Source: an uncultured Acidobacteriota bacterium (GTDB lineage: Bacteria; Acidobacteriota; Terriglobia; Terriglobales; Acidobacteriaceae). Taken from it: a stretch of 64,000 bases of DNA. Below the pieces are notes generated by a model. It did not search any database, had not been told where the DNA came from, and saw nothing but the letters and a program-made list of their open reading frames with translations. The translations under genes and the position numbers were made by a program. This document shows, piece after piece, positions 11,301 through 54,749 of the stretch (its first letter is position 1; every line of letters begins with the position of its first letter). The DNA lies in NCBI GenBank assembly GCA_963759215.1, contig CAVWYG010000006.1, positions 1,243,146 to 1,307,145 of the forward strand, in the 5' to 3' direction.

Positions 11301-11309
11301 GTGGTAAAT

Positions 11310-32821: not shown

Positions 32822-32835
32822 GTGACATAAGTTAC
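32822..32835. promoter_or_regulatory. degenerate CRP/HcpR-type box aGTGAcataagTTACt, 48 bp upstream of ric1
   Basis: Matches the xxTGA-N6-TCACx pattern seen at 39360, 41058, 43929, 45736 and 54732. Confidence 0.4.
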
Positions 32836-32882
32836 TGCCTTACCTCCTATTGTTCGCTAAGTTAAGCGATGGAGAGTGCTTC

Positions 32883-33614
32883 ATGTTCAGCTCATCACAA
32901 TCGATTCGCGACATCGCTGCCGATCAACCGTCTGCCATTGCCCTATTCGAGCGATTCGAGATAGACGTCTGCTCTCTGGCAGACAAATCTCTGAAAGAGG
33001 CATGTTCTGAACTTCAGCTCTCACTCGACCAGGTATTGGAAAAATTGCAAGAGTGCCGCGATCGTGAAAGCGGCGCGGGTCTCAGCGATCCATCCACTCT
33101 ATCCTGTGCACATCTGATTCAGCATATCGTTCGCGTTCATCACCAACGTGTACGCCACGATCTGCCGAGCTTGGTCAGGGAGGCACGCAAACTCACGGAC
33201 ACGCTTGGCGATCAATCCCACGAGTTTAAGGCAGTAGAAAAACTCGTTGAACAACTCCGGCAGGATATGTGGGCGCATATTCGAAAAGAAGAGGAAGTGC
33301 TTTTTCCTTTCATCGTTCAGATGGAGGAGGAATCCGCACTTGTCTATCCACCGGCGCATGCCTGCTTCCGGTCAGTCAGCCATCCAATCTTCATGATGGT
33401 GCAGGAACACGAAGCCGCAAATTTGATCATGGAAGAGATCCGTTGGACCACAGGAAACTTCACACCTCCTGAATGGGCGTGTCCTGCGCACCGCGCACTC
33501 TTTGAGAGACTTCGGGGATTTGATGCGGATCTACGGGAGCACATTCATCTAGAGAACGATGTCCTGTTCCCTCGGAGTATTCAAATGGAAGCTGAACTTA
33601 GAGGCACGAGGTAA
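32883..33614 (+). CDS. ytfE: iron-sulfur cluster repair di-iron protein (RIC/YtfE/ScdA), paralog 1
   Basis: ScdA_N domain followed by two hemerythrin-like H/E motifs (HHQRVRHDL, HIRKEEEVLFP, HEAANLIMEE, HIHLENDVLFP). Confidence 0.85.
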   Translation: MFSSSQSIRDIAADQPSAIALFERFEIDVCSLADKSLKEACSELQLSLDQVLEKLQECRDRESGAGLSDPSTLSCAHLIQHIVRVHHQRVRHDLPSLVREARKLTDTLGDQSHEFKAVEKLVEQLRQDMWAHIRKEEEVLFPFIVQMEEESALVYPPAHACFRSVSHPIFMMVQEHEAANLIMEEIRWTTGNFTPPEWACPAHRALFERLRGFDADLREHIHLENDVLFPRSIQMEAELRGTR

Positions 33615-33656
33615 CGCACGGACTAGGATCGCGGCAGAGAGGACTAACTGATCTCG

Positions 33657-33842
33657 ATGGCGAAAGTTCCCCTTCATCCAAAGCATCCCGAGCGAGTATG
33701 TTGGGGTTGCGCCAAATATTGCCCGGCTGACTCGCTCTCTTGCGGCAATGGAACTGTGCGTACTCAGCACCCCGTTGAGCTATTTGGCGCGGATTGGCTC
33801 AAGTGGGCAATTGACAGCCCCACTCCGATCCCGAGCTCCTAG
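33657..33842 (+). CDS. small cysteine-rich protein (61 aa; CWGC...C...C)
   Basis: Good ORF with a conserved-looking LHPKHPERVCWGCAKYCPADSLSCGNG; family assignment uncertain (DUF3079-like). Confidence 0.45.
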   Translation: MAKVPLHPKHPERVCWGCAKYCPADSLSCGNGTVRTQHPVELFGADWLKWAIDSPTPIPSS

Positions 33843-33956
33843 AAACGACCGCGACGGCAGACGACCCGGCTGATTCCAACTGGGGTGGATACTGAGACAG
33901 ATTTCGCCTATGTGATGGGAACCAGAACAGCAGATAGACCACGAAACCTTTCCGGA

Positions 33957-34700
33957 TTAGAGACGCCCGGTGATTGCCTGGAACAATAAGAGTGCACCGA
34001 TGCTTCCCAGACCCAGGTAAACGTAGTTCATAAAAGCGTTTCCATGCAGACGATGGTTAATGGCTCTGCCGAGGAACACCGTTGGCAGCGCGACCGGCAA
34101 TGAGAGCAGATAATAGTGCGTTACTGCGGGAACCCAGAGCCCGGCCAGCCAATACCCCACCATGACAACGATGCTCGCAGGCAAGAAATATGCCTGGAGT
34201 GTGGCGCGAAAGTGCTGCGCCGACCAGCGGCGCATGGATCCATAAATGACGAGCGGTGGACCGTTCATTCCGTAGGCTCCGCCCAGGACGCCAGCAAAGA
34301 ATCCGCAGGCTACAAGCCATCCCCGGTGGTCGCGCCGCAGTTCCAGCGGTGCGCGGCCGATTAACGAATAGCCGCAAAATAGCATGATGATCAGAGCTAA
34401 CGCGGCCTTCACTATCCTTTGATGGCTGCTTGTCAGAAGCAAAAGACCCAGCGGGATACCAGGAAATGTGGAGAACACCAGCCAGCCCGTGCTGCGCAGA
34501 TGAATCTTATTCCAGTCCTGTACGACGACGATGCCAGAGATGGTGATCGACACTAGCACGGCGAGTGGAGCGGCTACCTGCAGCGGAATGCGGAAAGCGA
34601 GCAGTGGAACGGCGATCAGCGCCTCTCCAAAACCGAATGCCGAGCGAATCAGTGTGGCAACGAAGACGACGGTCAGAACATAGATAGTGATGGAGGAGAT
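33957..34700 (-). CDS. TauE/SafE family sulfite-exporter-like membrane protein; start codon unclear
   Basis: 8 TM segments with the GxxxG-rich TauE pattern. The frame is open to ~34720 but has no in-frame ATG upstream of the first TM, so a non-canonical start or another frameshift is likely. Confidence 0.6.
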   Translation of the reverse strand: MSSITIYVLTVVFVATLIRSAFGFGEALIAVPLLAFRIPLQVAAPLAVLVSITISGIVVVQDWNKIHLRSTGWLVFSTFPGIPLGLLLLTSSHQRIVKAALALIIMLFCGYSLIGRAPLELRRDHRGWLVACGFFAGVLGGAYGMNGPPLVIYGSMRRWSAQHFRATLQAYFLPASIVVMVGYWLAGLWVPAVTHYYLLSLPVALPTVFLGRAINHRLHGNAFMNYVYLGLGSIGALLLFQAITGRL

Positions 34701-34972
34701 TGAGTTTCTCGCAGACTGATGAATTGATATTGGCGAGCAGGAATTACGTCATTCCGACCAGCCGAAGCACCCTCTATATGCTACCGCATTGCGAGCCAAT
34801 CGTACGTGCCGAGACCTTCCGCTTCGCATGAGGGTTCATTGGTAACTGTACCGGGCCGAGAGGCTGTGCCGTATCAACTTCGAGCGGAAAACAGGAACAA
34901 TGTCCGTAGTCTGGTGATTCGCAACAAATCTGGTCGTTCCACCATCTTCTAGGTAGGACGCGTTCTCCGAAA

Positions 34973-35527: not shown

Positions 35528-35577
35528 ACCCACTGCCTGAGTGCGTCCCGGTGCATACGGCAAATGCCCAGCTTCCT

Positions 35578-36159: not shown

Positions 36160-36306
36160 AACACATCTCCACTCTCAATTCCTTGCTATGCGCGTGTCCG
36201 AGCAGGAGTTTTATATCTCCTGCTGATTTAACAACAAAGCTGGTAAAAAAGTATGCCGGCGCTCCGGCTCTGCCTGCATTGTGCTCTTCCGCACATCGCT
36301 CGTGAA

Positions 36307-36867
36307 TTATTCGTGGAATGCACGGCGCTGAAGGTTGTCCGCAAGCTCTTCAAAGCGTCGCTGGATATCGGGACCGATGCTGGATTCGATGTCGTTGAAC
36401 TGCTTGGTTAGCTGGTCTTGCTCTTCGGCGGATAGAATCTTGTTCGTCATCGGAAACAGAAGGTAGTCTTCTTTCCAGATGTGACCGCCGTAGAGTTCGG
36501 CTAGGCTGAGCAGTGTAGTTCGCAACAGCTCCTTCTCGCTGCCGTTCTTTGTGTACCTACCAGAGACGGTTGCAAACTGCGCGACCAGGATCCGACCAGC
36601 GTCATGTTCCTTCTTTAAGACACCAAGCGGGCAGCCCTGAGGCGGCACACCTTTCAGTTCGAGGAGAGGAAACAGACCGGCTTCTTCCTTTCCATGATGG
36701 CACCGATCAGCGAAGGTGCGGAGGAACTCAAGGGTGTCGGCCAAAGTCTCTGCCGCCACAGCTTCGCCCTTTTCCAATTCTTCAGCGAGAAGCACCAAAG
36801 ACGCGACGACCTGCTGGATATAATGGTGCTCGCGCTCGAGCACTTCGGTTGCTTTCGGATGGCTCAT
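36307..36867 (-). CDS. hemerythrin HHE cation-binding domain protein
   Basis: HxxxE/HxxxxE motifs (EREHHYIQ, HHGKEEAGLFP, HIWKEDYLLFP); RBS AAGGAAG; immediately downstream of norZ. Confidence 0.75.
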   Translation of the reverse strand: MSHPKATEVLEREHHYIQQVVASLVLLAEELEKGEAVAAETLADTLEFLRTFADRCHHGKEEAGLFPLLELKGVPPQGCPLGVLKKEHDAGRILVAQFATVSGRYTKNGSEKELLRTTLLSLAELYGGHIWKEDYLLFPMTNKILSAEEQDQLTKQFNDIESSIGPDIQRRFEELADNLQRRAFHE

Positions 36868-36908
36868 TTTTGTCTTCCTTGTTCGAAGCTTCTCGTGTTC
36901 ATCGCTGG

Positions 36909-39206
36909 TCAGCGCTTTCCCACTGGCTCCTCCTCTATTTTCCATTGGCCTTCACGGACGAATCCATGTTCGGCATAGGAGTGCCCGGTAATGAGGCCGA
37001 GTACAAACCATCCCAGCACGAGGGTGCCAAAGGCGAAGATGCTGTCGCCAATGACACGAAGCCAGCGCAGGGTGTTCATCGTCGGCGTCTGCAAGAACTC
37101 GGAGGAGCGGGCGTACCAAGTACCGTACTCAACCGATGCCCAGGCCTGCATCAGTCCCACGGGTAGCAAACTGATCAGAACCATCGTCAACAGACCGATG
37201 TTGATGCACCAGAACGCGAGTGCAATCGGCTTCTCCTTCCAGGCGCGCCCAGGCCGCAGAGCGCGCAGGCAGAAGAGCATCAGGCCAAGGCCAAGCATGC
37301 CGTACACGCCGAACAGCGCCGTATGTGCGTGCACCGCTGTCGTGTTCAGGCCCTGCATGTAGTAAAGCGCCACCGGCGGGTTGATGAAGAAACCGAAAAG
37401 CCCGGCGCCCACGAAATTCCAGAAGGCCACGGCGACGAAGAAATAAATGGGCCACTTATAGGCGGTCACCCAGCGCGAGCTCTCGTTGCCGCGAGCCAGA
37501 CGGATGTTCTCCCATGCCTCAAAACCGACCAGCACCAGCGGCACCACCTCCATAGCGCTGAATGCCGCGCCCAGTGCCAGCACAGAGGTAGGCATCCCGG
37601 TGAAATACAGGTGATGGAAAGTTCCCAGGATGCCTCCTGAGAGGAAAATTACCGTCGAGAACAGCACCGAGGAAGTCGCCGTTCTCATAGACAGAAGTTT
37701 CAGGCGGGTGAAGAGGAACGCGATGACCACGGTCGCGAACACTTCAAAGAAGCCTTCTACCCAGAGGTGAACCACCCACCAGCGCCAGTATTCGGCGGTG
37801 ACCAGATTACTGCGATGCCCGAACATCAATCCGGACGCATAGAACAACGGGATCGCGATGGACGAAACCAGAAACAGCATCAGCAATTGGCGGCTCTCGT
37901 CACGCTTTCGTAATGCTGGCGCCAGCCCGCGATACATCAGCCACAACCAGAAGCAGAGACCGCCGAAGAGCAGGATCGCCCAGAAACGTCCCAGGTCCAC
38001 GTATTCGTAGCCCTGAGTTCCAAACCACCAGGAGAGATTAAGGTTGCCGATCTTGTGTTCGATGCTCGCCCACTCACCTGCCAGGGACCCGACGACAACG
38101 GCTATCAGAGCAACAAAAAGAACGTTGACTCCGAGCCTTTGGCCCTTCGGTTCGCGCTCGCTTACCGCCGGAGCGATGTAGAGGCCAGTTGCCAGCCACG
38201 AGGTTGCGATCCAGAAGATACCGATCTGCAAGTGCCAGGTGCGCGTGACTGCATAGGGAAGCCACTTCGATAAGGGAAAGCCATAGAATCCGTTGCCTTC
38301 GACTCCGTAATGGGCAGTGATGGCACCGAGCACAACCTGCACAACCCAGAGTGCAGCCACCACGAAGAAATACTTCACCGTAGCCCGTTGCGAGGGCGTG
38401 GGCTTCAACCCCAAGAGCGGATCGGTCTCGGGCGTCGCCAAGGCGTGTTCCGAAGAACTAACGTTTTGTGAGGCATACCACCACACCATCCCGCCGACAC
38501 CGGCCAACAGCAGAACGAAACTAATTACGCTCCAGACAATGGTTGCGGCGGTTGGACGATTGCCGATGAGTTCTTCATGCGGCCAATTCTGCGTGTATGT
38601 TATATCCGTGTCAGGGCGATTGGTACTCGCGGCCCAAGACGTCCACCAGAAGAATGCAGTCATCTGCCTGCTTCGGCCAAGATCATCCACTGCGTTCGGA
38701 GGAATCGCGTAAGCATTACGGCCGGTGTGGAATACGTCGTAGTAATAGGTCGAAAGTTCGCGGAAGGCGTCGGCACGCACTGGATCGACGGTCACATTCC
38801 CTGTGGCAGGGTCGTAGGTGTTGCGGCGCATCATCGCTTGCAATCGGCCCTGCAGTGCGGCCCGGCGTTCCACGTTCAGCGCAGCGTAGCTGCTGCTGCC
38901 TTCCCGCTGTGCCCAGCGGTCTAGAATGATGACGCACTCACGATGTAGGTAGTCGGCACTCCAATCCGGAGCCACGTAGGCGCCGTGCCCCCAAACCGTG
39001 CCGACTTCCTGACCTCCGATCGACTGCCACACGTTCTGCCCCGTCTGAATCGCGTTAGCGTCAAAAAGCACGCTCCCATCGCTGGAGACTACTTGGGCTG
39101 GTATCGGAGGAGCATTACTAATGGCCTTATAGCCGACGCCACCGAGCACAGCGAAGGACACGACCATCACTAGTCCAAGGGCGATCCAAAGCTTTCTGAA
39201 TTCCAT
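36909..39206 (-). CDS. norZ: quinol-dependent nitric oxide reductase (qNor/NorZ), heme-copper oxidase superfamily
   Basis: ~765 aa; N-terminal periplasmic extension + 12-TM HCO core with conserved His ligands (HHLYFTG, HAHTALFG). Confidence 0.85.
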   Translation of the reverse strand: MEFRKLWIALGLVMVVSFAVLGGVGYKAISNAPPIPAQVVSSDGSVLFDANAIQTGQNVWQSIGGQEVGTVWGHGAYVAPDWSADYLHRECVIILDRWAQREGSSSYAALNVERRAALQGRLQAMMRRNTYDPATGNVTVDPVRADAFRELSTYYYDVFHTGRNAYAIPPNAVDDLGRSRQMTAFFWWTSWAASTNRPDTDITYTQNWPHEELIGNRPTAATIVWSVISFVLLLAGVGGMVWWYASQNVSSSEHALATPETDPLLGLKPTPSQRATVKYFFVVAALWVVQVVLGAITAHYGVEGNGFYGFPLSKWLPYAVTRTWHLQIGIFWIATSWLATGLYIAPAVSEREPKGQRLGVNVLFVALIAVVVGSLAGEWASIEHKIGNLNLSWWFGTQGYEYVDLGRFWAILLFGGLCFWLWLMYRGLAPALRKRDESRQLLMLFLVSSIAIPLFYASGLMFGHRSNLVTAEYWRWWVVHLWVEGFFEVFATVVIAFLFTRLKLLSMRTATSSVLFSTVIFLSGGILGTFHHLYFTGMPTSVLALGAAFSAMEVVPLVLVGFEAWENIRLARGNESSRWVTAYKWPIYFFVAVAFWNFVGAGLFGFFINPPVALYYMQGLNTTAVHAHTALFGVYGMLGLGLMLFCLRALRPGRAWKEKPIALAFWCINIGLLTMVLISLLPVGLMQAWASVEYGTWYARSSEFLQTPTMNTLRWLRVIGDSIFAFGTLVLGWFVLGLITGHSYAEHGFVREGQWKIEEEPVGKR

Positions 39207-39359
39207 TATCTTGTCCTCCCGAACATCGTTCTTAATGCCCGCCAGTTCCATCAGCGCTGGGACAAGGAGGGTGCTCAACTACAGAGCTGGGTTTTTCCGG
39301 AGCATGGGTTGCCGTAGCCGAATCTATACGAACAATCGCAAAGCGTATCACCGCCGCCT

Positions 39360-39373
39360 ATGACTTTAGTCAC
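39360..39373. promoter_or_regulatory. CRP/HcpR-type box tATGACtttagTCACA, ~155 bp upstream of norZ
   Basis: Palindrome read directly; same consensus as the boxes at 41058, 43929, 45736 and 54732. Confidence 0.55.
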
Positions 39374-39442: not shown

Positions 39443-41005
39443 TTATTGTCCTATCCTGACCAGATCGTCGGAGTGAATCCGCGGTGCCCCAAGCACGCCG
39501 GGACGATGCGTGTGGGCAAGGTTCATCGTGCGCCACATCTCAACGCCCCACCAAGTCAGTGCGATCAACTCGACGAATCCCGTGATGCCGACCAGCGGAT
39601 AGGCTCGTCTCGTGAAGTCGGTTGCAATCTGCAACATCACGCGGCCGGCGCACCCGATATTTAAAAGAATGAATGGGCCCAGCAGAGAACTGAAGCGATC
39701 GCCAGCCACACCCGCGAGGATTGGTACCACGCGACCGGCAACACCTATGATCATGAAGCTAATGAAGCCAACCGTGAAGGCATGACGATGCGCTCCCATG
39801 TACGCGTGAGCGAATACCTGCCCGCTGAACTTGCCGTAAAGCAGGTAGAACGGCAGCATGAAGCAGGAGGCTAACAGCCATACATATGCGGCACGAATGA
39901 ACTTGAACGTGCGATCCGTCTGCGCCGGATGCGAGAATATTCCCAACTGCCGGACCAGCAGCGTTGCCCACAGCGCCAGCAGTAGGTAGGCCGCTTCCAG
40001 GCCGAGAAAGAATACTGCGTTCCTTGTGATCAACGCTCCCACGTAGCTCACGATCCCCAACACAAGGCTCGCGGTCATGATGATAAAGATCAGGTTTTGC
40101 CGGTCATGCCCCGGCCGCGTTAGGCCATAAACCACGGGGACGAATCGCTGACTGATCCCGGCAATAATCAATGCCGCAAAGCCAAAAAGTTGAATGTCGC
40201 GCAGCGGATTGTCGAGCAGGGCAATGCGCGCGGCCAGCACATGCTGGCTGGCAGCTGTGGCCTTTGCGAAGAAGAATACGTGGCTGAGCACGTTTCCCAC
40301 GAAGAGCCAGAGCACCGAACCGAATATGAACTTCTCATACTTGTTCCGCGGCTCAAGGGACTGGCTCGCCGTTCGGTACAAGATGAACGCGAACAGCGCG
40401 ATTCCAACTGGTTCGACGCCCGCCGCCAACGCACCGAAGGCCAGACCAACGAGTGCGGGCTGCATCAACTCGGCCACGACCCGCGAGCCTATGCCAGTCA
40501 GCATAAGATAGAACGTGAGGTTCGCCAGCTCCGGCCGCCAGAGATTAGTGTTCTTGAAGCGCGGGAAGGATTGGTAGGCGAAGCCCATGACGAATAAACA
40601 CACCCACCCGTACACCATGGCGTGAGCGTGTGCGTGAATCGCTGGCAATAATCCCGACTGCAAGAACGAACCGCGAAGCCCGATCTGGAACAGGTTGATC
40701 GCGCCCCACAGCACCCCTAACGTAATTGCAATTGCGATGCCCGCCTTGAAGAACCGACGGTAGATGAAGTCCGCAAGCGACTCCTTATAGCGATAGTCAT
40801 GGGCTGGGCACCTCAATTCGGCATTCAGTTCTCGCAACAGCAGGGCAAGATCGACCTGATGGACATCGGCAAAGAACGCCAGCGACTCGGCAGGGCCTTG
40901 TTGGCCGCCGCAGCCGTGCAATCCATGCTGGTCGAAGACGCGCCGTGCGCTCGGACACTCTCGTACAACTTGGGCAATCGTGCTATCAGCAGTGATGGTT
41001 TTCAT
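39443..41005 (-). CDS. nnrS: NnrS family heme-copper membrane protein with an N-terminal ScdA_N/DUF1858 domain
   Basis: N-terminal ~70 aa (TIAQVVRECPSARRVFDQHGLHGCGG) resembles the RIC N-domain, followed by the 12-TM NnrS core with conserved His. Confidence 0.8.
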   Translation of the reverse strand: MKTITADSTIAQVVRECPSARRVFDQHGLHGCGGQQGPAESLAFFADVHQVDLALLLRELNAELRCPAHDYRYKESLADFIYRRFFKAGIAIAITLGVLWGAINLFQIGLRGSFLQSGLLPAIHAHAHAMVYGWVCLFVMGFAYQSFPRFKNTNLWRPELANLTFYLMLTGIGSRVVAELMQPALVGLAFGALAAGVEPVGIALFAFILYRTASQSLEPRNKYEKFIFGSVLWLFVGNVLSHVFFFAKATAASQHVLAARIALLDNPLRDIQLFGFAALIIAGISQRFVPVVYGLTRPGHDRQNLIFIIMTASLVLGIVSYVGALITRNAVFFLGLEAAYLLLALWATLLVRQLGIFSHPAQTDRTFKFIRAAYVWLLASCFMLPFYLLYGKFSGQVFAHAYMGAHRHAFTVGFISFMIIGVAGRVVPILAGVAGDRFSSLLGPFILLNIGCAGRVMLQIATDFTRRAYPLVGITGFVELIALTWWGVEMWRTMNLAHTHRPGVLGAPRIHSDDLVRIGQ

Positions 41006-41057
41006 CGGCGTAACCCCCTCGCGAACTTAACGGTACGCAAAAGAAAACCTCGAGGCG

Positions 41058-41071
41058 ATGACCAAAGTCAC
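41058..41071. promoter_or_regulatory. CRP/HcpR-type box gATGACcaaagTCACg, 53 bp upstream of nnrS (39443-41005)
   Basis: Palindrome read directly. Confidence 0.55.
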
Positions 41072-41189: not shown

Positions 41190-42386
41190 TTAGGTTGCCG
41201 GCATCGGGTGAAGAGTGTCCGCCTTCGAACCCTGGTCTGCTTCCTGCTCCGCCGCTCCCGTCGTGCGCGGCTGATAACTGCAACACGGCTCTTCGGCGAA
41301 TATATCCTCCGTCAGTGCATAGGCCCTGGCGCGCGAGCCTCCGCAGATCTGCTTATATTCACAGCGCCCACACTTGCCGAGCAGATTGCGCTCGTCGCGT
41401 AGTGACTGAAACAGTGGACTATCGCGATAAAGCTTTGTGAGTGATTCGCTCCGGACATTGCCAGCTGTGATCGGCAGGAATCCGCTGGGAAATACTTCGC
41501 CAGTGTGGGAGATGAAGACGAATCCCTTTCCGTCGTTAATTCCCTTGGGGGCGCGCCCAATACCGTCGGCGGAAGCGGTGCCGAGAACTGGAGGCAATTC
41601 ACTTGGCTTCGTTACTCCAGCGCGCCGCAATTCGGTGCGGCGTTGCAGAAGATAGCGCCGGTAGTGTTGAGCCTCCGTGCTCTTGATGTCGAACTTCACC
41701 CGCCGGGAGGTCTCGTACAACTTTGCAAAGACCTGCTCGAACTCTTCTGCCGAAATTAGATCGATGTCCGCGCCACGTCCGGTTGGAACCAGGAAGAAAA
41801 CACTCCACAGCGCGATATCAAGGTCCTCCAGCAGCGTGACGATAGCGTCGATGTACTTTAGATTGTGGCGTGTGATCGTGGTGTTGATTTGCACCGGAAG
41901 GTCAATCTCCCCAGCCCAGTGCGCGCCCTGGATTGTGAGGTCAAAAGAGCCCGCGACGCGCCGAAAGCCATCGTGAATCTCGGCAGTCGGACCATCAAGA
42001 CTGATGGCAAGACGGGCAAGGCCGCTTTCCTTCAGCTTCACGATGGCTTCGCGGGTGAGTAGTGGAGTGGCACTCGGAGTCATTGAAGGCCGCAGCGTGC
42101 GATCTGCAGCGTAGCGGACAAGTTCATGGATATCGGGGCGCTTCAGAGGGTCGCCGCCGGTCATCACAAACAGCGGAGCCTTGAGCGCTGCAATTTCGTC
42201 GATCAGACTTTTCGCCTCTTCCGTCGATAGCTCCAGGGGATTGCGCGATGGCTGCGCGCTAGCCCGGCAGTGAAGGCAAGCCAGGTCGCAGGCCTGCGTA
42301 GTTTCCCAGATCACGAGGAACGGACGTTCGTCGAAATCAATTTCCAAGTACGCTACAGGACTCGCTGAAGCATGATTCAGCTGCAT
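41190..42386 (-). CDS. radical SAM / SPASM domain protein (NirJ/AhbD-like)
   Basis: CDLACLHC (Cx3Cx2C), GGDP motif, C-terminal SPASM Cys cluster CGRCEYKQICGGSRARAY...CC. Confidence 0.8.
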   Translation of the reverse strand: MQLNHASASPVAYLEIDFDERPFLVIWETTQACDLACLHCRASAQPSRNPLELSTEEAKSLIDEIAALKAPLFVMTGGDPLKRPDIHELVRYAADRTLRPSMTPSATPLLTREAIVKLKESGLARLAISLDGPTAEIHDGFRRVAGSFDLTIQGAHWAGEIDLPVQINTTITRHNLKYIDAIVTLLEDLDIALWSVFFLVPTGRGADIDLISAEEFEQVFAKLYETSRRVKFDIKSTEAQHYRRYLLQRRTELRRAGVTKPSELPPVLGTASADGIGRAPKGINDGKGFVFISHTGEVFPSGFLPITAGNVRSESLTKLYRDSPLFQSLRDERNLLGKCGRCEYKQICGGSRARAYALTEDIFAEEPCCSYQPRTTGAAEQEADQGSKADTLHPMPAT

Positions 42387-42446
42387 GATACTACCTCACT
42401 CTAGCTATAGATTTGCAGTTGCCGGCCTCTCTGCAAACGACTGAAG

Positions 42447-43826: not shown

Positions 43827-43928
43827 AAGACATCCTCTCGCCGCTCAGTCGGAGCGCAGATGAAGGGGCGGTGCGTCACGCATCGCGCGCACTTGCACTC
43901 AAACTACCCGCAAGCACGCCTCGCTGCG

Positions 43929-43942
43929 ATGACCAAGGTCAC
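43929..43942. promoter_or_regulatory. CRP/HcpR-type box gATGACcaaggTCACA, ~100 bp upstream of the second nnrS
   Basis: Palindrome read directly. Confidence 0.55.
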
Positions 43943-44330: not shown

Positions 44331-44843
44331 CTAGTGTGCGTACATTGGACTGCTAGCCAGGAGTGTGGCCCCGATTGGTAGTTCGAAAGTGTCGCCATGC
44401 CAGTGGAACACCGGAATGTCGGCATCGGATGGTGCGAACACGGGGTCTGTGCTCGCAGCAGGCGCCAGCCGCACAGAGCCAAATCCAATTTCACTCGCTG
44501 GTCCGGGAAAGACACTCGCTCCCAACGACTTCGCAAGCAGCTGAGCACCGAGGCAAACTCCGAGCACGGGACGGTCGCGCCTAACCATTTCTGAGATTAG
44601 AGCGCACTCTTGTGCGAGGTATGGGTACTTCTCGGTTTCATAGGCCCCCATGGGGCCGCCCATTACGATTAACCCGCTGATGTCTTCTAGATTCGGGACG
44701 GTGGGGATCAGGTCCAGGCGGTGAGTTTCCACCGAGAGTCCGCGTGCGCGAGCTAGGGATGCGATAAGTCCGGGCCCTTCCCACGCGACATGCTGGAGTA
44801 TGGCCCAATGGCAGTCTGTTGAGAAAGAGGGAAAGACGTTCAA
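44331..44843 (-). CDS. class I glutamine amidotransferase-like protein, possibly C-terminally truncated or frameshifted
   Basis: GATase1 motifs LGVCLGAQLL (Cys nucleophile) and VFHWHGDTFELP. The ORF ends after 170 aa, while the expected HPE motif region continues in another frame (44216-44548). Confidence 0.55.
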   Translation of the reverse strand: MNVFPSFSTDCHWAILQHVAWEGPGLIASLARARGLSVETHRLDLIPTVPNLEDISGLIVMGGPMGAYETEKYPYLAQECALISEMVRRDRPVLGVCLGAQLLAKSLGASVFPGPASEIGFGSVRLAPAASTDPVFAPSDADIPVFHWHGDTFELPIGATLLASSPMYAH

Positions 44844-44963: not shown

Positions 44964-45686
44964 TCAGCGAGACGGTAATGCTTCCATCGCAATCGCGCGC
45001 GGGAACAGAATGTTGTTCTCGAGATGAATGTGCTGGTGCAGGTCCTGCTCAAATTCCTTGAGCCCAGCATAAAATGCGTGATAGGTGGGACACGCATCCT
45101 GGGGTGGAGTGAATTTAGCACTGAGATGCTTGATCTCTGCCAGCAACTCTCCTGCGCCGTCGTGCTCCTGCATCATCATGCCAATGGGGTTTGCAACCGT
45201 TTCGAAGCAGCCGTGCGGTCTCGCGCTGCCGGTGGCCAGGGCACGTTCCAGATTGGCGATATAGGGAAACAGGACCTGTTCTTCTTTCATCAGATGCTGA
45301 CTCAGGTCCTGATCAAGCGCCTGCAGCGCGAATTGAATTTCAGGGAGTTCCACGTGAAGGGAGCCATGCTTCGCAACTACCTTTTGTGCGAGCGTGTCGA
45401 GGCGAGGGAGTTCCTTCTTTACATACTCGTGGTGCTGCGAGACGATGTGCATGATCAGGCTTTCAAGCGAGGCCTCGCTCCAGTCCGTCAGCTCCCGATT
45501 GGACTCTGAGGCGGCTGATGCCAACGCGACGAGCACGGCGCCGATTTCGACATCCTGTTCCGTGCAGGCGATGGCGAGAGGCTTTCCCCCACCACAACAG
45601 TAATCGATTCCGAATTGTTCAAATACTCGTATCGACGATGGCTGGTTCAATACGATCTCACGGACGGTTTCAGTGACGGCGGGCAT
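44964..45686 (-). CDS. ytfE: iron-sulfur cluster repair di-iron protein (RIC/YtfE), paralog 2
   Basis: Same architecture as the paralog at 32883; IRVFEQFGIDYCCGG N-domain; four H/E hemerythrin motifs. Confidence 0.85.
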   Translation of the reverse strand: MPAVTETVREIVLNQPSSIRVFEQFGIDYCCGGGKPLAIACTEQDVEIGAVLVALASAASESNRELTDWSEASLESLIMHIVSQHHEYVKKELPRLDTLAQKVVAKHGSLHVELPEIQFALQALDQDLSQHLMKEEQVLFPYIANLERALATGSARPHGCFETVANPIGMMMQEHDGAGELLAEIKHLSAKFTPPQDACPTYHAFYAGLKEFEQDLHQHIHLENNILFPRAIAMEALPSR

Positions 45687-45735
45687 ATCAATCTCCTTGA
45701 GTCTTGAAGATAGAAGAGTGCGGTGGTTGCTGCAG

Positions 45736-45749
45736 CGACCAAAGTCACT
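45736..45749. promoter_or_regulatory. CRP/HcpR-type box aGCGACcaaagTCACt in the divergent ric2/crp2 intergenic region
   Basis: Palindrome read directly (one mismatch in the left half-site). Confidence 0.5.
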
Positions 45750-45839: not shown

Positions 45840-46548
45840 ATGCGATTGAACACGAAGCGTGTTGATCTGGCGGAAGTTCTTCAGAAGACAGCCCTGTTTT
45901 CCAGTCTTTCTCAACCCGAGTTGCAGTTGCTGGCCACCAAAACGGTCAGGAAGCTGTTCGGTGCGGGGGAAGCTCTGTTCCACGAAGGCGATCCCTGCAA
46001 GGGATTGCACATCATCTCGCGAGGACAGGTGAGGATTTTCAAGCCATCGGCCAGCGGACGCGAGCAGGTTCTGGCCGTGAACGTTGCCGGCGAATCGGTT
46101 GCCGAACTTCCGGTCTTTGATGACGGCCCGTATCCGGCCTCCGGAATGGCGATCGAGGAAACCGAGATTGCGTTTATCTCGCGTAAGGACTCCGTGATTA
46201 TTGTCTGGCTCGCCCGGAAGTCGCACTCAAGGTTCTGGCTTTTGTCGGCGCCAGGCTGCGCAGGCTGGTCGGCATAATTGAGGAGCTGTCCTTTACGACC
46301 ACGCGTCAGCGCCTTGTCTCCCTCTGGTTCGTCTGGCGCAAAGCGACGGACGGAAAACCGAGAAGGGTATTGAGGTCCTGCTGCCCGGTACCAACCAGGA
46401 GCTCGCAAATCAACTGGGAACGGTGCGCGAAGTGATTTCGCGTAACCTCATGCGGCTGCAGGCTGAGGGATTGCTGGAAGTGGATGCCCGGCAGATCGTG
46501 ATCAAAGACGTGAAGGGACTGGCCGCGCTGCTGGAGGCGGTGCAATAA
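45840..46548 (+). CDS. Crp/Fnr family transcriptional regulator, paralog 2; two frameshifts (~46200 and ~46340)
   Basis: N-terminal 120 aa closely parallels crp1. Continuation ...RPEVALKVLAFVGARLRRLVGIIEELSFTT and ...KTEKGIEVLLPGTNQELANQLGTVREVISRNLMRLQAEGLLEVD is found in the other two frames. Confidence 0.65.
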
Positions 46549-48052: not shown

Positions 48053-48297
48053 CCTGCCCACGATTCACTCCTGAATCGTGGGCAGAATTAAGGGGTAACA
48101 CAAGGACGCTAATGCCGAAGGCGCTATCACTGGTGGGTTCAATCTTCGGATCGCGCAATTGAGACGACAAATCCGCCTGCTCGAAGGCATGTACTCGCGC
48201 GAGGGTGTAGATCAATCTTCTGACTTCAGCAGGAACGCGGCCGTTGAGAGTGACTAAGGTCATAGCAAGACGCCTGATGGAAGAGCAGGATTGCATC

Positions 48298-48690
48298 ATG
48301 ACCATTGAGACCTCGTCTGAAACCGTATTCAATAGCAGCATCTTCGAAATCGCATCCTCATTGCAAACTGCGGATCACGGCACCGGCGGACGGATCAACC
48401 GCGTGCTGATCGATTTGCCGGGCCTGCGTGTTCTACTCATTTCACTTACGGCAGGAGCTCATGTGCCTGAACATAAAGTTGCAGGCGCAATTACCGTCCA
48501 GCCTGTGCTCGGGCGTGTTCAGATGATTGCTTTCGGCTTGGGCAGCGAAGCCTCGGAAACCCAACGCGCCCAGCAGCAATATGAGCTTGGAGTCGGCAGC
48601 CTGCTTTCGCTGAAAGGCGGTGTTCCACACGATGTGCGAGCTTTGGAGGAGAGTTGTATCTTGGTTTCGATTGTCAGGGCGATCCGATGA
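48298..48690 (+). CDS. cupin domain protein
   Basis: Double-stranded beta-helix motif with H...H...E (AHVPEHKVAGAITVQPVLGRVQM, GVPHDV). Confidence 0.55.
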   Translation: MTIETSSETVFNSSIFEIASSLQTADHGTGGRINRVLIDLPGLRVLLISLTAGAHVPEHKVAGAITVQPVLGRVQMIAFGLGSEASETQRAQQQYELGVGSLLSLKGGVPHDVRALEESCILVSIVRAIR

Positions 48691-48805
48691 CGATACGTCG
48701 CTGCTGAGACTTAAGTCATTGGTTGCGGGAAGTCGCTATGGCTTCCTGATGTAGACTAGCCGCTGCGGTGAATCCGGTAAGATCCGGCGGCAAAGAGGAA
48801 CTCAT

Positions 48806-49990
48806 ATGCAACCGTCTCCTAAACTTCAGCTCGCTCTCGGCACGGGATCTTTTGCTTTCTGCTTTGCAGTCTTCGGCTCACTCTCTGCGATGATGCCAAT
48901 ACTGAGCAGGCAAATGCATCTCTCTCCAGTGCAGAAGAGCATCGCCGTAGCGGTCCCCGTTTTACTGGGCAGCCTGGGCCGGATCCCCCTGGGCATGTTG
49001 ACGGATCGCTTTGGTGGGCGCTCGGTATTCAGTGTCGTGATGTTGATCTCCGCTATTCCCGCTTTTCTTATGGGAACCGCGCACAACTATGAGCACCTGT
49101 TGTTTTACGGATTCTTCATAGGAATTGGGCTGGCGAGTTTTTCGGTTGGCGTAGGTTTTGTCAGCGGATGGTACAGCGCCGAGCGGCAAGGCTTTGCGCT
49201 TGGCGTGTATGGAGCGGGAAATATCGGCCAGTCGTTGGCTGCGTTTGGCGCGCCTTTCATCGCCGCCGTAGCGGGAGTTCGATGGGGTTTTTGGACCTTC
49301 GGTGTCCTGCTCTCGATTTGGTTGCTGCTGTTCGCGCTTCTGGCGCGTGACGCTCCGCGCCGCGTTCCGATCAAATCGTTCAGGGATACGGTGCGCCCTC
49401 TGAACGATTCCCGGAGCTGGGTTCTGAGTCTCTACTACTTCCTCACCTTCGGCGGTTTCGTTGCGATGGCAGTGTACCTGCCGATCTTCCTGACAGAGAT
49501 GTTCAAGCTAACGCCGCAGGATGCTGGAATGCGAACGGCTGGATTTGTTGTACTGGCTACGATCATGCGGCCAATTGGCGGAACGCTCGCCGACAAAGTT
49601 GGCGGCCGAACAATTTTGAAGTGGGTATTTCCCGCGACGGCTCTGATGGCCATGTTCCTGGCTTGCCCGCGGATGATCACCTTCACGATCGGGGCTCTTG
49701 GAATGGCTGTTGCCATTGGTCTTGGCAACGGAGCGGTCTTCAAACTCGTGCCGGAGTACTTCCCTAATTCCGTGGGCAGTGTGACTGGGTTGGTTGGTGC
49801 CGCCGGAGGGCTGGGCGGTTTTTTCCCTCCGTTATTGCTGGGCGTCGTCAAGCAGCAGACAGGTAGTTTCTCGCTCGGGTTCGTGCTGCTTGGTGTGTTT
49901 GCGCTGATATGTCTTTTCATCCTTCTGCGGCGATCATCGGCGCCGAACATAGCAATTAGTTTCCCAGAGGCAGGAGATGCGACAGCCTGA
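48806..49990 (+). CDS. MFS transporter, NarK/NasA-like (putative nitrate/nitrite transporter)
   Basis: 12-TM MFS protein with [10 protein letters not shown]-type motifs in TM2-3 and TM8-9, placed in a molybdoenzyme cluster. Confidence 0.65.
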
Positions 49991-51065
49991 ATTTCCAGTT
50001 CGAGGTTCCGACACTGCACACGCCTTCGGATGGGGCGTGCTCGTGGCTTCGTCTCTGATTGCAGCCATCTTCATCGGCAGCCGCGGCCTGAAGGATTTCG
50101 ATCCCGCGCTGGTTTCCTATGCAGGCGCATCGGTCTTTGCCGCTTTCGGGCTGGGCTACCGTTATTCCATGTGGCTGCGAAGGCCGCCCACTCGCCTGTA
50201 TTGGTACCGGGGATGGCAACTGTTTCTGCAACCCAGGCGATTGCCCGGAAATATCCTGCATCTGGGCAGAATATTCTTGAACAACATCGTTCTGCAGAAG
50301 TTTATCCAGAGGCGTTCCCGCATTCGCTGGACCGCGCACTGGTTCCTGGCCTGGGGATGCTTGCTCGCTGCGGCAGTTACCTTTCCCTTGTCGTTCGGCT
50401 GGGTAAGATTTGAGACAGCGCGCGACAGTCAGGAGATATACAACGCCTTCATGTTCGGCATCCCGGTTGGCAGCTTCCACCTTGGAAGCGTGGTGGCGGA
50501 GCTGACCTTCAACATCCTTGATATTGCGGCGGTGATGGTTCTAATCGGCGTTTTCTTCGCCATGTGGAGGCGCGCCCGCGACCGAGATGCAAGGTCTGTC
50601 CAGCAGTTCTCGAACGATCTGTTGCCGCTGATTCTGCTGTTTGCAATTTCGATCACGGGACTCTTTCTCACCGCATCGACGCACCTGATGCATGGACTGC
50701 ACTATGTGTTCCTCTCGCAACTCCATGCCATCACGGTGATCTTCACGCTGCTTTACCTGCCCTTCGGCAAGTTCTTTCATATTTTTCAGCGTCCAGCGCA
50801 GCTTGGAGTGGACTTCTACAAGATGGCGGGAGCAGAGGGCCAGCAGGCGAGCTGCGTGCGCTGCGGTCAGCTCTACGGATCGCGAATGCAAATGGAAGAT
50901 CTGAAAGCCGTGCAGGCTGCAATCGGCATCCGGTACCAGATGGCCGACGGAACTCATTATCAGGATGTGTGTCCCGCCTGCCGCCGCAAGAATCTCGCGC
51001 TAGCACAGGACGGTCTCTGGAAGTCCCTTGGCAGGGACGTGCGTGGAATGGGAAAGGAGTTGTAA
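49977..51065 (+). CDS. NarI/DsrM-like diheme cytochrome b membrane subunit with a C-terminal Cys4 zinc-ribbon extension
   Basis: 5 TM segments. The last helix, [24 protein letters not shown], parallels NarI PFTRLVHIWSAP with the H-x17-H spacing; the C-terminus has CVRCGQ...CPACRRK. Confidence 0.6.
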
Positions 51066-51066
51066 G

Positions 51067-53286
51067 GTGGCGAAGCTTCCTACAGATATTCCTGAGTTGG
51101 TGAATCAATTTGGTCCCACACTACACACGGTTCCTCCCGGCGGCTGGGCTCACGCCGGCAAGGACGAGAAGTTGGTGAAGACGCATTGCTGTTTCTGCGG
51201 CCAGCAGTGCGGAATCCAACTGCGCGTGATCGAGAACAAGGTCGTGGGTTTTGAGCCGTGGGAGGACTTTCCCTTCAATCGCGGCAAGCTCTGCCCTAAG
51301 GGTGTAAAGCGCTACATGCAGGACGAGCACCCGGACCGCCTGAAGAGCCCGTTGCAACGCGTGCAAGGACAAGGTTTCTCGCCGATCGCCTGGGATGCGG
51401 CGATGGAGCGCGTCGTCGCCGAGATTCGCCGCATTCAGCTCCAGTATGGCAATGATGCATTCGCGCTGCTGACAGGGGCTTCGCTCACCAATGAGAAGGC
51501 TTACCTGATGGGCAAGTTCGCGCGCGTCGCCTTGAAGACGGCGAACATCGACTACAACGGGCGCCTCTGCATGGTCTCGGCAGGTGCGGCTTCCAAGAAA
51601 GTTTTCGGCATCGACCGCAGTGCTAACCCGTGGAGCGACATTGCGAAATCCAAGGTCATCCTGGTTGCCGGTGCAAACATCGCAGAGTGTGCGCCTATTA
51701 CCACCGACTATTTGTGGCAGGCGCGCGAAAACGGCGGCAAACTTATTATCCTCGACCCGCGCATGACGCCCATCGCGCGCAATGCCGATCTGTTCATCCC
51801 CGTGCGCTCGGGCGGCGACATTGGGGTCTTCAACGGAATGTTGCACATCATGATCGAACGCGGCTGGATCGACCGCGAGTTCATTGCGCAGCACACCACC
51901 GGCTTTGACTCCGTGATGGAGACAGTGAAGAAGTACACGCCGGAGTATGCCGCCAAGATCGCGGGAGTTCCACCGGAAATGATTGTCAAGGCAGCTGAGC
52001 TATGGGGGCCGGCGCCGACCAGCTTCCTGCTGCACGCCCGCGGCATTGAGCACCACTCCAAAGGCGTGGACAACTGCATCGCGGCCATCAACCTGGTTGT
52101 GGCCAGCGGACGCATTGGCCGCGAGGGTTGCGGCTACGCCATGATCACCGGGCAAGGCAACGGACAGGGCGCGCGCGAGCAGGGACAAAAGTGCGACCAA
52201 CTTCCCGGCAGCCGCGACATCAGCAATCCGGAGCATCGCAAATATATCGCGGGTGTATGGGGCGTTCCCGAAGAATCGATTCCGCAGAAGGGTTTGTCGG
52301 CGGTTCCGCTGGTGGAAGCCATTCACGATGGCAAGATCAAGGGGTTGCTGTCGATCTGCTTTAATCCTGCGGTGTCGCTGCCGGATGGCAACTACGTTCG
52401 CGAGGCACTTGAGAAGCTGGAGTTCTACGTCAACATCGATTTCTTCCTCTCAGAGACCGCTCGATACGCCGACATCGTTTTACCGGGCTCGCTGATGGAG
52501 GAAGACGAAGGCACGACAACCAACGTCGAAGGCCGTGTGATCCGCCACCGCCAGGCTGTAACGCCGCCCGAAGGCGCGCGCGAGGACTGGGCGATCATCA
52601 ACGAAATCGCAGCCCGGCTCGGTTACGCAGACAAGTTCAGCGCCGCGCCGCGCGAGATCTTCGAAGAGTTGCGCATCGCCTCCAAGGGCGGCGTCTCGGA
52701 TTATTCCGGCATGACGTGGGACCGCATTGACGAGAGCTACGGCCTGTTCTGGCCTTGTCCCGAGCCAGGACATCCGGGCACTCCGCGTTTGTATGAGGGC
52801 GGAAAATTCGGCCATCCCGACGGCAAAGCGCACTTCATTCCGATTGAGTGGCGTCCTTCGGCGGAGATGCCGGATGAAGAGTATCCGATCATTCTCACTA
52901 CTGGCCGTGTGGTCTCGCACTTTCTTTCCGGCACACAGACGCGCCGCATCGGAGGACTGATGGAGCAGTATCCGCAGCCACGCTGCGAGATACATCCCCG
53001 TCTCGCGGACAAGCTAGGCATCGCCGACGGCGATTTCGTCAAGGTCGAGAGCCGCCGCGGGGAGATCGTGGTGCGGGCGCAGGTAGTGAAGACGATTCGG
53101 CCAGACACTGTCTTCGTCCCTTATCACTGGCCGCTGGATCGCTCAGCGAACAACTGCACCATCCGTGCCATCGACCCGGTCTCGAATATTCCTGAATTCA
53201 AGATCTGCGCGGTTCGCGTGAGCAAGACGGAGGCCCCTACCGATGCGATCGCGCAACTTGAGATGGAGGCGGGAGGCATTCGATGA
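51067..53286 (+). CDS. molybdopterin (Mo-bisPGD) oxidoreductase catalytic subunit, Nas/Nap/Fdh clade; no signal peptide
   Basis: N-terminal [4Fe-4S] motif [10 protein letters not shown]...C, MopB domain, C-terminal molydop_binding domain; GTG start with an AAGGAG RBS; 739 aa. Confidence 0.8.
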
Positions 53287-53909
53287 GCGAAATGGCTTTC
53301 TTCATCGATCACTCGCGCTGCATCGGATGCCAGTCGTGCGTGCAGGCGTGCGCCGAATGCGACACCCATCGCGGCGTCAGCATGATTCATCTGGAGACAA
53401 TCGATCGTTCGGACAGTGTCCAGACGGCCCCGCAGGTCTGCATGCATTGTGAAGACCCGATCTGTGCGCGTGTCTGCCCGGCCGACGCTATCAAGAAGAC
53501 CCCTGATGGCGTAGTGCAGAGTTCCCTGAAGCCGCGTTGCATTGGGTGCTCGAACTGCGTCATGTCGTGTCCGTTCGGTGTGCCAAAGTACCGCGCAGAG
53601 ATCGACCAGATGATGAAGTGTGACATGTGCTACGACCGCAGCAGCGTTGGCAAGAAGCCGATGTGTGCCACCGTTTGCCCATCCGGCGCATTGGCCTTTA
53701 CGACGATGGAAGAGATTCAGCGCACCCGCGGCGGAATTCCGATCAACTCGTGGCGCTTTGGCGATGAAATTGTAAAGACCAAGGTTTACGTAATGGTTCC
53801 GCGCGAGGTCGAACGTGTCGACGTGGAGCTTGTGCAGATCACATCCACTCCCGCTGCGCTGCCGGATGATCCCTATGATGTTGCGCTGATGCTGGAGGAC
53901 GCGCGATGA
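53283..53909 (+). CDS. 4x[4Fe-4S] ferredoxin-type iron-sulfur subunit (NrfC/PsrB/DmsB-like)
   Basis: Four Cys clusters: [42 protein letters not shown]...CATVCP. Confidence 0.8.
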
Positions 53910-54418
53910 CCGTGGATAAGAAAGACGCCACCTGTGGTAAGGCTCCGAAATGGAGGCAGGATTTCCCCATCGAGTGGGAAGGCGACCATTACGTTACTCG
54001 ACGCGAGATGGTGAAGTTCATGACCCTCGGCTCCGCGCTGCTGGCAGCGGCAAACTGGATCGTTGCAATTGCCGGAAGCTTAGTTCATCGCGGATCTCAT
54101 GCAGAGCGCTACATCGGCGAGGCTCGCGCTCTGGAACAGACGGGCTCACTTCTCTTCCGCTACCCGACAGATGCGGACCCGTGCATCGCAGTCCATACGC
54201 CGGAAGGCAAGCTGGTTGCCTATTCGCAGGTCTGTACGCATCTCTCCTGTGCCGTTGTGTATGACAAAAGCGAGAACGCTCTGATCTGTCCGTGCCACAA
54301 CGGCGTCTTCAACATCGATCATGGGAGCCCGACTGCCGGACCACCCACTCGGTCACTTTCTCGGGTAAAGATCGAGCAGCGTGGTGACCAACTCTTTGCA
54401 ACGGAACTGGAGTCCTGA
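53906..54418 (+). CDS. Rieske [2Fe-2S] protein with a Tat-like RR motif and hydrophobic anchor
   Basis: TRREMVKF then [20 protein letters not shown]; Rieske boxes CTHLSC and CPCHNG. Confidence 0.8.
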
Positions 54419-54655
54419 ATGAGCGTGCGCAGCCAGGGAACGACTCTATTTTCGGCGATCCTGATTCTAGTAGGAATAACGGTAGTAGTGCAGCTCTGGT
54501 TGCTTACTGTCTCTACCGAGGCACTGCTCAGCGGGCAGACGAAGACACTGATCCCTGCCGCGGCAGGATCGTCGTTGTTGCTGTTGATCAGCGCGTGCCT
54601 GCTTCGCTATGTGTATCGTTTTGACCACGACGTTGAGCGGGAGTCCCAGGAGTAG
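54419..54655 (+). CDS. small two-TM membrane protein (78 aa), possible accessory subunit
   Basis: The ORF follows directly after the Rieske stop; it has two hydrophobic helices. Confidence 0.4.
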   Translation: MSVRSQGTTLFSAILILVGITVVVQLWLLTVSTEALLSGQTKTLIPAAAGSSLLLLISACLLRYVYRFDHDVERESQE

Positions 54656-54731
54656 CCACTTTGCCGGTGCAATTTATCCGCGCATTCTTCACATCAAGCG
54701 GTCATCAGGTGAGCTGAAAGAAACACTTCCT

Positions 54732-54749
54732 GGTGTGACTTTAGTCACA
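54732..54749. promoter_or_regulatory. perfect CRP/HcpR-type box gTGTGActttagTCACAg, 77 bp upstream of hcp
   Basis: TGTGA-N6-TCACA read directly. Confidence 0.65.

Follow-up and report, generated by a model that had tools for sequence, protein, structure and literature searches.

Conserved GTGAC-N4-GTCnC boxes predict a nitric oxide defence regulon under a CRP/FNR-type regulator in Acidobacteriaceae

In this study, we examined a 64,000-nucleotide stretch of DNA (contig CAVWYG010000006.1; hereafter the window) from an uncultured bacterium of the Acidobacteriaceae, and describe a short box that recurs in it upstream of genes for defence against nitric oxide (NO). The box, with the 14-bp consensus GTGAC-N4-GTCnC, precedes nine NO-defence operons and is conserved in relatives; it is thus very likely to be the site of the neighbouring CRP/FNR-type regulator, Crp1. 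Judging from the sequence data, we consider it probable that the boxes are the operators of a nitrosative-stress regulon under Crp1, together with its paralogue Crp2 if the latter is intact, and that Crp1 is an HcpR/DNR-like, NO-responsive class II activator. Binding by Crp1, activation and NO as the signal are the parts of this reading that we infer, and they are weighed below against other explanations.

All nine boxes lie within 32.8-54.8 kb of the window (Table 1, where box coordinates are those of the 14-mers oriented toward the gene served). A first-pass annotation of the window had described the motif as TGTGA-N6-TCACA; its register is the same as ours and stands, while the motif itself is better written in an asymmetric form. 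The promoter-distal half is a perfect GTGAC in eight of the nine sites, whereas the promoter-proximal half reads GTCAT, GTCGC, GTTAC, GTCGT or GTCAC, and with their flanks the boxes extend to (T/A)GTGAC-N4-GTCAC(A/T). The six sites listed in that annotation are all present, displaced by no more than 1-2 nt, and three further sites (42437, 48250 and 48706) had been missed. The regulon, earlier put at about 15 genes, is accordingly larger, with about 20 predicted members behind nine operators.

The boxes do not occur at random. The core TGACNNNNGTCA is found 8 times in the window against 0.96 expected, a number that none of 100 shuffles reached, and RTGACNNNRGTCAC, with at most one mismatch, gives 18 strand-hits against 2.97 expected. 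A position weight matrix derived from related genomes only, with none of the window's own sites used, yielded 14 strand-hits above 10 bits in the window (null mean 0.5), which correspond to 8 distinct sites. All 8 are intergenic and lie within 32.8-54.8 kb, and none was found in the rest of the 64 kb; the site at 43929 scores below 8 bits because of its spacer alone. Candidates at 15092 (TGACATGAGTCA, upstream of a response-regulator gene), 19460 and 42566 match the loose symmetric core only, have low matrix scores and were set aside as chance occurrences. The pattern TGAC-N5-GTCA was likewise discarded, as it has no match in the window and the right register is N4.

To the comparison with relatives we brought 60 related Acidobacteriaceae loci (L001-L060), centred on crp and amounting to 1.04 Mb. 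Their arrangement is conserved: a radical-SAM gene is divergent from crp, which is followed by ric1 and nnrS2, an octaheme cytochrome gene is often divergent from qNor, and ric2 is divergent from hcp. In most relatives, the radical-SAM gene and crp have one operator in common, and across relatives boxes precede the ric, hcp, qNor, radical-SAM and octaheme cytochrome genes. Since the relatives' sites are asymmetric (GTGAC-N4-GTCGC, GTCCC or GTTAC), we used an oriented matrix in place of the symmetric core; symmetric TGACN4GTCA is not enriched in the 60 loci (19 occurrences, 8-22 expected). With the matrix, 188 sites above 12 bits were found, as opposed to about 4 in a shuffle, and 144 of them adjoin recognised island genes, mostly ric, radical-SAM, crp, qNor, cytochrome and hcp.

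Alignments of the individual promoters show the same box. The site before ric1, which had been called degenerate, is instead the best conserved in the clade: in an alignment of 35 sequences with a mean column identity of 58%, 15 consecutive columns (AGTGACATAAGTTAC) do not vary at all. Upstream of ric2, GTGAC and GTCGCTG are invariant in 23 sequences and the spacer is variable. The hcp gene is preceded by GTGACTT(A/T)AGTCGCTG in six relatives, qNor by TGTGACTAAAGTCCCTGCA and the radical-SAM gene by a conserved GGGACTTTGGTCACTGC, and the octaheme cytochrome gene has an operator of its own in relatives (including L003-L027). A box matching that of narK in the window stands before an MFS gene in L002, and TGACTTAAGTCA boxes lie 188 and 242 bp upstream of the MFS gene in L001 and L002. 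We also observed that the 4-nt spacer of the ric1 operator (ATAA) is as invariant across the clade as its half-sites, while that of ric2 varies. In L023 and L060, a DDE transposase of an insertion sequence (10731-11995) lies between the ric1 operator and ric1 and separates the gene from its promoter.

The association of box and genes is also seen in metagenomes. A search with the exact 17-mer AGTGACATAAGTTACTG returned 120 contigs, 75 of which have the order crp, site, ric; of the remainder, about 17 are consistent with it but cut by contig ends, about 15 have the site between the radical-SAM gene and nnrS2, and about 12 have no recognisable neighbour. The first-pass reading is supported, in that the boxes are a conserved cis-element associated with a CRP/FNR gene and NO-stress genes in about 60 genomes and about 120 metagenome contigs. 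The motif is short, and boxes of this kind could in principle be chance palindromes or a non-regulatory repeat element. This explanation is effectively refuted by the enrichment, the matrix hits, the 188 sites in relatives, the invariant footprints and the metagenome context, and the stretch at 31-58 kb contains no match to an Rfam family at the gathering thresholds.

The boxes keep a fixed distance to a -10 element. At five of the nine window sites (those of ric1, nnrS1, nnrS2, ric2 and hcp), a TAnnnT hexamer occupies exactly nucleotides 30-35 when counted downstream from the box centre; such hexamers are found at 0.5% of window positions, which gives a binomial P of ~3e-10. At the same offset, or one base further, the element is present in relatives before ric1 (34/34), the cytochrome gene (11/13), hcp (6/9) and qNor (7/10). 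This spacing places the box centre at -41.5 or -42.5 from the predicted start. A box at -41.5 is the class II activator architecture of CRP and FNR, and we take the target promoters to have, probably, this geometry. A Crp1 dimer would read GTGAC-N4-GTCnC through its CRP-type recognition helix (R-E-x3-R), and the box would replace the -35 element, such that switched-on Crp1 would recruit RNA polymerase.

The promoter of the regulator gene is built differently. In most relatives, the common box lies about 14 nt before a TATAAT, which in turn lies 7 nt before a GTG start. Relative to the promoter of the regulator gene the box would therefore be at about -26, a position that points to negative autoregulation. 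Upstream of crp1 in the window, the counterpart of the L001 and L002 box (near 9960-10000) has decayed to ATGAGTCTTAAGTTTC. The start of crp1 is most likely the GTG at 32087, giving 234 aa as in orthologues; it is preceded, at a distance of 7 nt, by a perfect TATAAT (32074-32079), so the mRNA is probably leaderless. The repression implied by the box at -26 could hold for the whole regulon, with Crp1 sitting over the -35 region as a repressor that leaves the DNA once a metal or Fe-S centre has been damaged by NO; two cysteines and two or three histidines are conserved in Crp1. The target promoters argue against this, given that their -10 hexamers are weak (TACCGT, TAAGTT, TATCTT), that only cTG is found at the -35 position, and that in a scan of 32-46 kb, which leaves out the cupin, narK and hcp operators, no operator has a promoter with both sigma-70 hexamers. 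Moreover, a strict spacing of -41.5 is the hallmark of class II activation in the CRP/FNR family. We thus consider a repressor quite unlikely, even with a precedent in the model for HcpR2 of Desulfovibrio desulfuricans (PMC5701242).

Crp1 itself belongs to the CRP/FNR superfamily (PF00027, 1.6e-21; PF13545, 5.5e-16; PF00325), and its recognition helix, TVRELISRNL, contains in RELISR the Arg180, Glu181 and Arg185 of CRP. Rodionov et al. (2005) found a correlation between Arg180 and Glu181 in the regulator and G3 and A6 in its box (PMC1274295). The boxes have G3 and A6 and so fit the helix of Crp1 under this rule, in agreement with the first-pass assignment to the CRP/HcpR class and not to FNR/DNR or NsrR. 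That annotation had ascribed TVRELISRNL to both paralogues, which is correct for crp1; crp2, which is 67% identical to it, has TVREVISRNL. Two single nucleotides are missing from crp2, one near 46190 (GAC-T[T]C-CGT) and the other near 46318 (CT[C]-CTG), and interrupt its reading frame; these deletions reflect either gene decay, making crp2 a pseudogene, or an assembly error.

Could another protein, such as Rex or a further CRP/FNR paralogue, bind the boxes, with Crp1 merely adjacent? Rex sites have been described as identical to HcpR1 sites in Desulfovibrio (PMC5701242), the Rex operator TTGTGAA-N4-TTCACAA is a similar 5-N-5 palindrome, and relatives have a box before the gene for lactate dehydrogenase, which Rex classically controls. 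Rex belongs, however, to a different protein family, and its sites have A at the spacer-adjacent position where the boxes have an invariant C (GTGAC). The regulator gene and its divergent neighbour use one box in most genomes, the helix of Crp1 fits the motif, and no other regulator candidate is found among the Pfam- and NCBIfam-annotated island genes, a result obtained with no dedicated Rex search. A binder other than Crp1 is therefore very unlikely indeed.

Of the known regulators, HcpR is among those closest to Crp1 as we propose it. HcpR of Desulfovibrio uses wTGTGAnnnnnnTCACAw (PMC1274295), and HcpR1 of D. desulfuricans, whose helix has R at positions 1 and 6 and E at position 2, has been footprinted on TGTGA-N6-TCACA (PMC5701242). 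These proteins have in common with Crp1 a CRP-like box with G3, an R-E-x3-R helix and the absence of an FNR cysteine cluster, and they respond to NO or nitrite with a regulon of hcp, ferredoxin-like, hemerythrin and nitrate-reductase genes (PMC1274295, PMC5701242). A palindromic CRP/FNR-type box upstream of hcp, one of the marks of the HcpR functional group of Rodionov et al. (2005), is found at 54735-54748. In L009, L036, L044 and L050, hcp is directly upstream of crp; in the window the two are 22 kb apart in the same island. Unlike the TGTGA box of Desulfovibrio HcpR1, the box described here is asymmetric and has an invariant C beside the spacer, a feature that the TTGAC-type HcpR motif also shows. 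In place of hcp-frdX, the core regulon comprises ric, nnrS, qNor and the radical-SAM gene, most relatives pair crp with the radical-SAM gene and ric rather than with hcp, and the hosts are soil Acidobacteriaceae and not strict anaerobes.

The likeness to HcpR is one of box, helix and regulon, and may or may not reflect orthology with the HcpR1 and HcpR2 clades. The HcpR1 branch includes delta-proteobacteria and cyanobacteria, and the HcpR2 branch Clostridia, Bacteroides and Thermotoga; those relatives of Crp1 that have a name and are at least 36% identical to it all belong to the Acidobacteriota (Terriglobia, Pyrinomonadaceae) and carry generic annotations. Its top matches are from Acidobacteriaceae and include metagenome-assembled genomes (87% identity) and Telmatobacter bradus, which has two copies (78%), and only 174 of 1.84 billion cluster representatives match it at E <= 1e-30. 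Among NCBIfam models, Crp1 reaches no equivalog, the best being FtrB with 74 bits against a cutoff of 211. A Geobacter/Desulfuromonadales cluster, 38% identical to Crp1, has the helix SETISR, as described for TTGAC-type HcpR1; the context of this relative (transketolase, crp, DAHP synthase) has no hcp and no TTGAC-N4-GTCAA box.

The solved structures closest to Crp1 are those of GlxR, Mycobacterium tuberculosis CRP and Thermus CRP (94-98 bits, ~29% identity), followed by DNR (62 bits), Escherichia coli CRP (58-60), CooA (57) and FNR (~39-40). The nearest structures are thus those of actinobacterial and Thermus CRPs that depend on cyclic AMP (cAMP), but the arginine that contacts the cAMP phosphate is a tyrosine in Crp1. 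In E. coli numbering, the cAMP cassette consists of Gly71-Glu72 and Arg82-Ser/Thr83, and the role of Arg82 is established. The phosphate-binding loop of Crp1 reads TEIPVFDGGPYPVSA, with no arginine, compared with GELSIFDPGPRTSSA in GlxR; the Arg-Thr/Ser pair has become Tyr-Pro, which is conserved across the wider clade. With Arg82 replaced, canonical cAMP binding by Crp1 is unlikely. The cAMP-CRPs (GlxR, M. tuberculosis CRP, Thermus TTHA1437) thus match Crp1 in R180, E181, R185 and a TGTGA-type box and differ from it in the cassette, and their regulons concern carbon metabolism and not NO stress.

As proposed for Crp1, DNR and NnrR are class II activators whose boxes are centred at -41.5, have nor, nnrS and dnrN (ric) among their targets, and work with neither cAMP nor an FNR-type cluster; they use, on the other hand, an FNR-type TTGAT-N4-ATCAA box, whereas the box here has G3, no nir genes are present in the island, and Crp1 is closer to GlxR (98 bits) than to DNR (62 bits). 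FNR itself has four cysteines (C20, C23, C29, C122) and T at position 3 of its box, where the boxes here have G. Crp1 has only two cysteines, Cys63 and Cys132, located elsewhere, with no N-terminal CX2CX5C and no FNR-type cluster. NsrR is a functional analogue that governs the same genes (hcp, ytfE/ric, nnrS and NO-detoxifying enzymes), but it is a repressor of the unrelated Rrf2 family with a different operator.

The likeliest signal for Crp1 would be NO or a related nitrosative signal and not cAMP, sensed by a cofactor in its domain resembling those that bind cyclic nucleotides. Among 61 Crp1 orthologues, 89-98% retain Cys63, His67, Cys132, His135 and His196, and we speculate that these residues are cofactor ligands, with Cys63, His67, Cys132 and His135 as candidates for a heme or other metal centre. 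Known NO regulons contain hcp, ferredoxin, hemerythrin, nitrate reductase, nor, nnrS and dnrN/ric (PMC1274295), and the similar content of the regulon described here supports the NO-stress reading. Induction would yield qNor, Hcp, two RIC and two NnrS proteins, the AhbD-like radical-SAM enzyme and hemerythrin, as well as the small cupin, the nitrate-reductase-like operon and the octaheme cytochrome; qNor and Hcp would detoxify NO, RIC would repair Fe-S clusters, and the rest would be accessory.

In relatives, strong operators are also found before genes for a Fer4_5 membrane polyferredoxin, an L-lactate/malate dehydrogenase, a cytochrome b561/molybdopterin-oxidoreductase fusion and a PAS-GGDEF-EAL protein; like these four, the small cupin that follows qNor is a recurrent target there. 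The regulon of relatives thus extends to fermentation and cyclic di-GMP signalling. The lactate/malate dehydrogenase and the PAS-GGDEF-EAL protein, together with the nitrate-reductase-like operon behind narK in the window, would suit the proposed operator and regulator if the signal were hypoxia, redox state, nitrite or nitrate instead of NO. The core members in nearly all genomes are nevertheless ric, nnrS, qNor and hcp, which are hallmark targets of the NO sensors NsrR, NorR, DNR and NnrR (PMC1274295), and Crp1 is devoid of the FNR-type cysteine cluster for O2 sensing; a signal of this kind is thus unlikely.

Several points weigh against an activator of class II that responds to NO. A hypoxia or redox signal would equally suit the nitrate-reductase-like operon and, in relatives, lactate dehydrogenase, and the solved structures closest to Crp1 are those of cAMP-CRPs. 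Activation by HcpR-type proteins is not universal, HcpR2 of D. desulfuricans being modelled as an Fe-S repressor (PMC5701242). Within the window, the qNor, radical-SAM, narK and cupin promoters have no clean TAnnnT at the expected offset. As for the operators, the matrix is only partly independent, because its core positions were set by the selection pattern, and L001 and L002, two of its sources, are close kin of the window; specificity was judged on no more than the 64 kb of the window together with the loci around crp (about 1 Mb).

The genes under the predicted operators form an island at 32-58.5 kb, with unrelated genes on either side; Pfam and NCBIfam profile searches agree with the identities first given to them (Table 1). 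The qNor and hemerythrin genes overlap by 37 nt in one operon (36307-39278, minus strand), after which a terminator-like hairpin is found at 36255-36268. The N-terminal domain of NnrS1 is of the family found at the N-terminus of RIC proteins, which hints at a common partner or function. The radical-SAM protein TIGR04053 is kin to the heme b synthase AhbD and to NirJ, and its gene is the one most tightly paired with the regulator. For the small protein at 48298-48690, the match to PDB 3fjs, an RmlC-like cupin, has an E value of 9e-5, and weak homologues are encoded directly after qNor in relatives.

Table 1. Predicted operators, -10 elements and genes (window coordinates unless a locus is named)
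Feature	Position	Strand	Sequence	Score or basis
ric1 operator	32822-32835	+	GTGACATAAGTTAC	top matrix score, 25.1 bits
qNor operator	39360-39373	-	GTGACTAAAGTCAT	16.8 bits
nnrS1 (DUF1858-NnrS) operator	41058-41071	-	GTGACTTTGGTCAT	pattern, matrix and promoter scans
Radical-SAM operator	42437-42450	-	GTGACTTCAGTCGT	10.1 bits, weaker than other sites
nnrS2 operator	43929-43942	-	GTGACCTTGGTCAT	pattern match; matrix score <8 bits
ric2/crp2 intergenic operator (ric2 orientation)	45735-45748	-	GTGACTTTGGTCGC	~18 bits, both strands
Small-cupin operator	48250-48263	+	GTGACTAAGGTCAT	pattern and matrix scans
narK / nitrate-reductase-like operon operator	48706-48719	+	GAGACTTAAGTCAT	19.1 bits
hcp operator	54735-54748	+	GTGACTTTAGTCAC	perfect palindrome, 21.4 bits
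ric1 -10 element	32858-32863	+	TAAGTT	
nnrS1 -10 element	41030-41035	-	TACCGT	
nnrS2 -10 element	43901-43906	-	TAGTTT	
ric2 -10 element	45707-45712	-	TATCTT	
hcp -10 element	54771-54776	+	TATGCT	
crp1, CRP/FNR-family regulator, 234 aa	32087-32791	+		Pfam cNMP_binding, HTH_Crp_2
ric1, RIC/ScdA-type di-iron protein, Fe-S cluster repair	32883-33614	+		Pfam ScdA_N, Hemerythrin
Hemerythrin-domain protein, operon with qNor	36307-36945	-		Pfam Hemerythrin
qNor	36909-39278	-		Pfam NorB_cytochrome_c-like, COX1
nnrS1, N-terminal DUF1858/ScdA_N-like domain fused to NnrS	39443-41005	-		Pfam
Radical SAM/SPASM protein TIGR04053, AhbD/NirJ-like	41190-42386	-		NCBIfam, 487.7 bits (cutoff 395)
nnrS2	42447-43826	-		Pfam NnrS
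Class I glutamine amidotransferase, downstream of ric2, possibly truncated	44331-44843	-		Pfam
ric2	44964-45686	-		Pfam; ATG at 45686
crp2, crp1 paralogue	45840-46548	+		67% identical; frame broken
Small cupin-fold protein, ~130 aa	48298-48690	+		no Pfam family; weak PDB 3fjs match
Nitrate-reductase-like five-gene operon	48806-54418	+		Pfam and NCBIfam; genes overlap or abut
hcp, hybrid cluster protein	54824-56449	+		Pfam Prismane, 531 bits
Octaheme c-type cytochrome, after hcp	56545-57894	+		eight CxxCH motifs
Examples of extra targets in relatives	L010 5878-6972; L012 16496-17446; L024 13642-15345; L012 10994-14143			strong operators upstream

The five-gene operon encodes a NarK-family transporter, a QmoC/TmcC-like membrane protein, a NasC-like molybdopterin subunit (805 bits, under the equivalog cutoff of 1100), a 4Fe-4S protein and a Rieske protein. 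The 4Fe-4S protein is a multi-cluster ferredoxin, and a similar operon is present in L001, L002 and L053; we know of no described nitrate reductase type with this combination of subunits. The octaheme cytochrome has weak matches to hydrazine-dehydrogenase/HAO-like and multi-heme families and, from its sequence, may be a nitrite or hydroxylamine reductase. MoeA and a protein with a sulfite-oxidase-like domain are also encoded in the island. Near crp2, the amidotransferase gene and a TauE gene at 33957-34559 look truncated. The genome of T. bradus (NZ_CP184532.1) has two complete paralogous copies of the locus, at 3.71 Mb (L003) and 0.22 Mb (L004), each with the radical-SAM gene, crp, ric1, nnrS2, the cytochrome gene and qNor.

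A further-reaching proposal can be made, and we put it forward tentatively, as a possibility we would not favour at present. Crp1 might represent an Acidobacteriota-specific clade of the CRP/FNR family in which NO sensing evolved apart from HcpR and DNR, with a cofactor chemistry of its own (Cys63-x3-His67, Cys132-x2-His135, Tyr-Pro). It might then be the main switch, in the bacteria that dominate acidic soils and peat, for NO tolerance and for qNor-dependent production of nitrous oxide (N2O), with the TIGR04053 enzyme as its invariable partner in the response, for example in the repair of heme or of a cofactor.

A system of this kind is well known, and the general picture of bacterial NO sensing is unchanged by our findings; what is new is a conserved acidobacterial example. 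Our literature searches found no NO-responsive regulator and no such regulon described for Acidobacteria, as the first-pass annotation had supposed for an HcpR-type regulon in this kind of high-GC soil lineage, and a genome survey merely notes norZ as a likely NO detoxification gene (PMC5900883). Acidobacteriaceae rank with the most abundant bacteria of acidic soils and of peat, and their qNor turns NO into the greenhouse gas N2O. Altogether, this study defines an operator sharply, proposes a regulator for it and predicts a conserved regulon with about 20 members, several of them poorly characterised (NnrS, the DUF1858-NnrS fusion, the TIGR04053 enzyme, the small cupin and the unusual nitrate-reductase-like complex). 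The cultured T. bradus DSM 23630 allows direct tests of these predictions, and the operator could serve to mark NO-responsive genes in soil metatranscriptomes.

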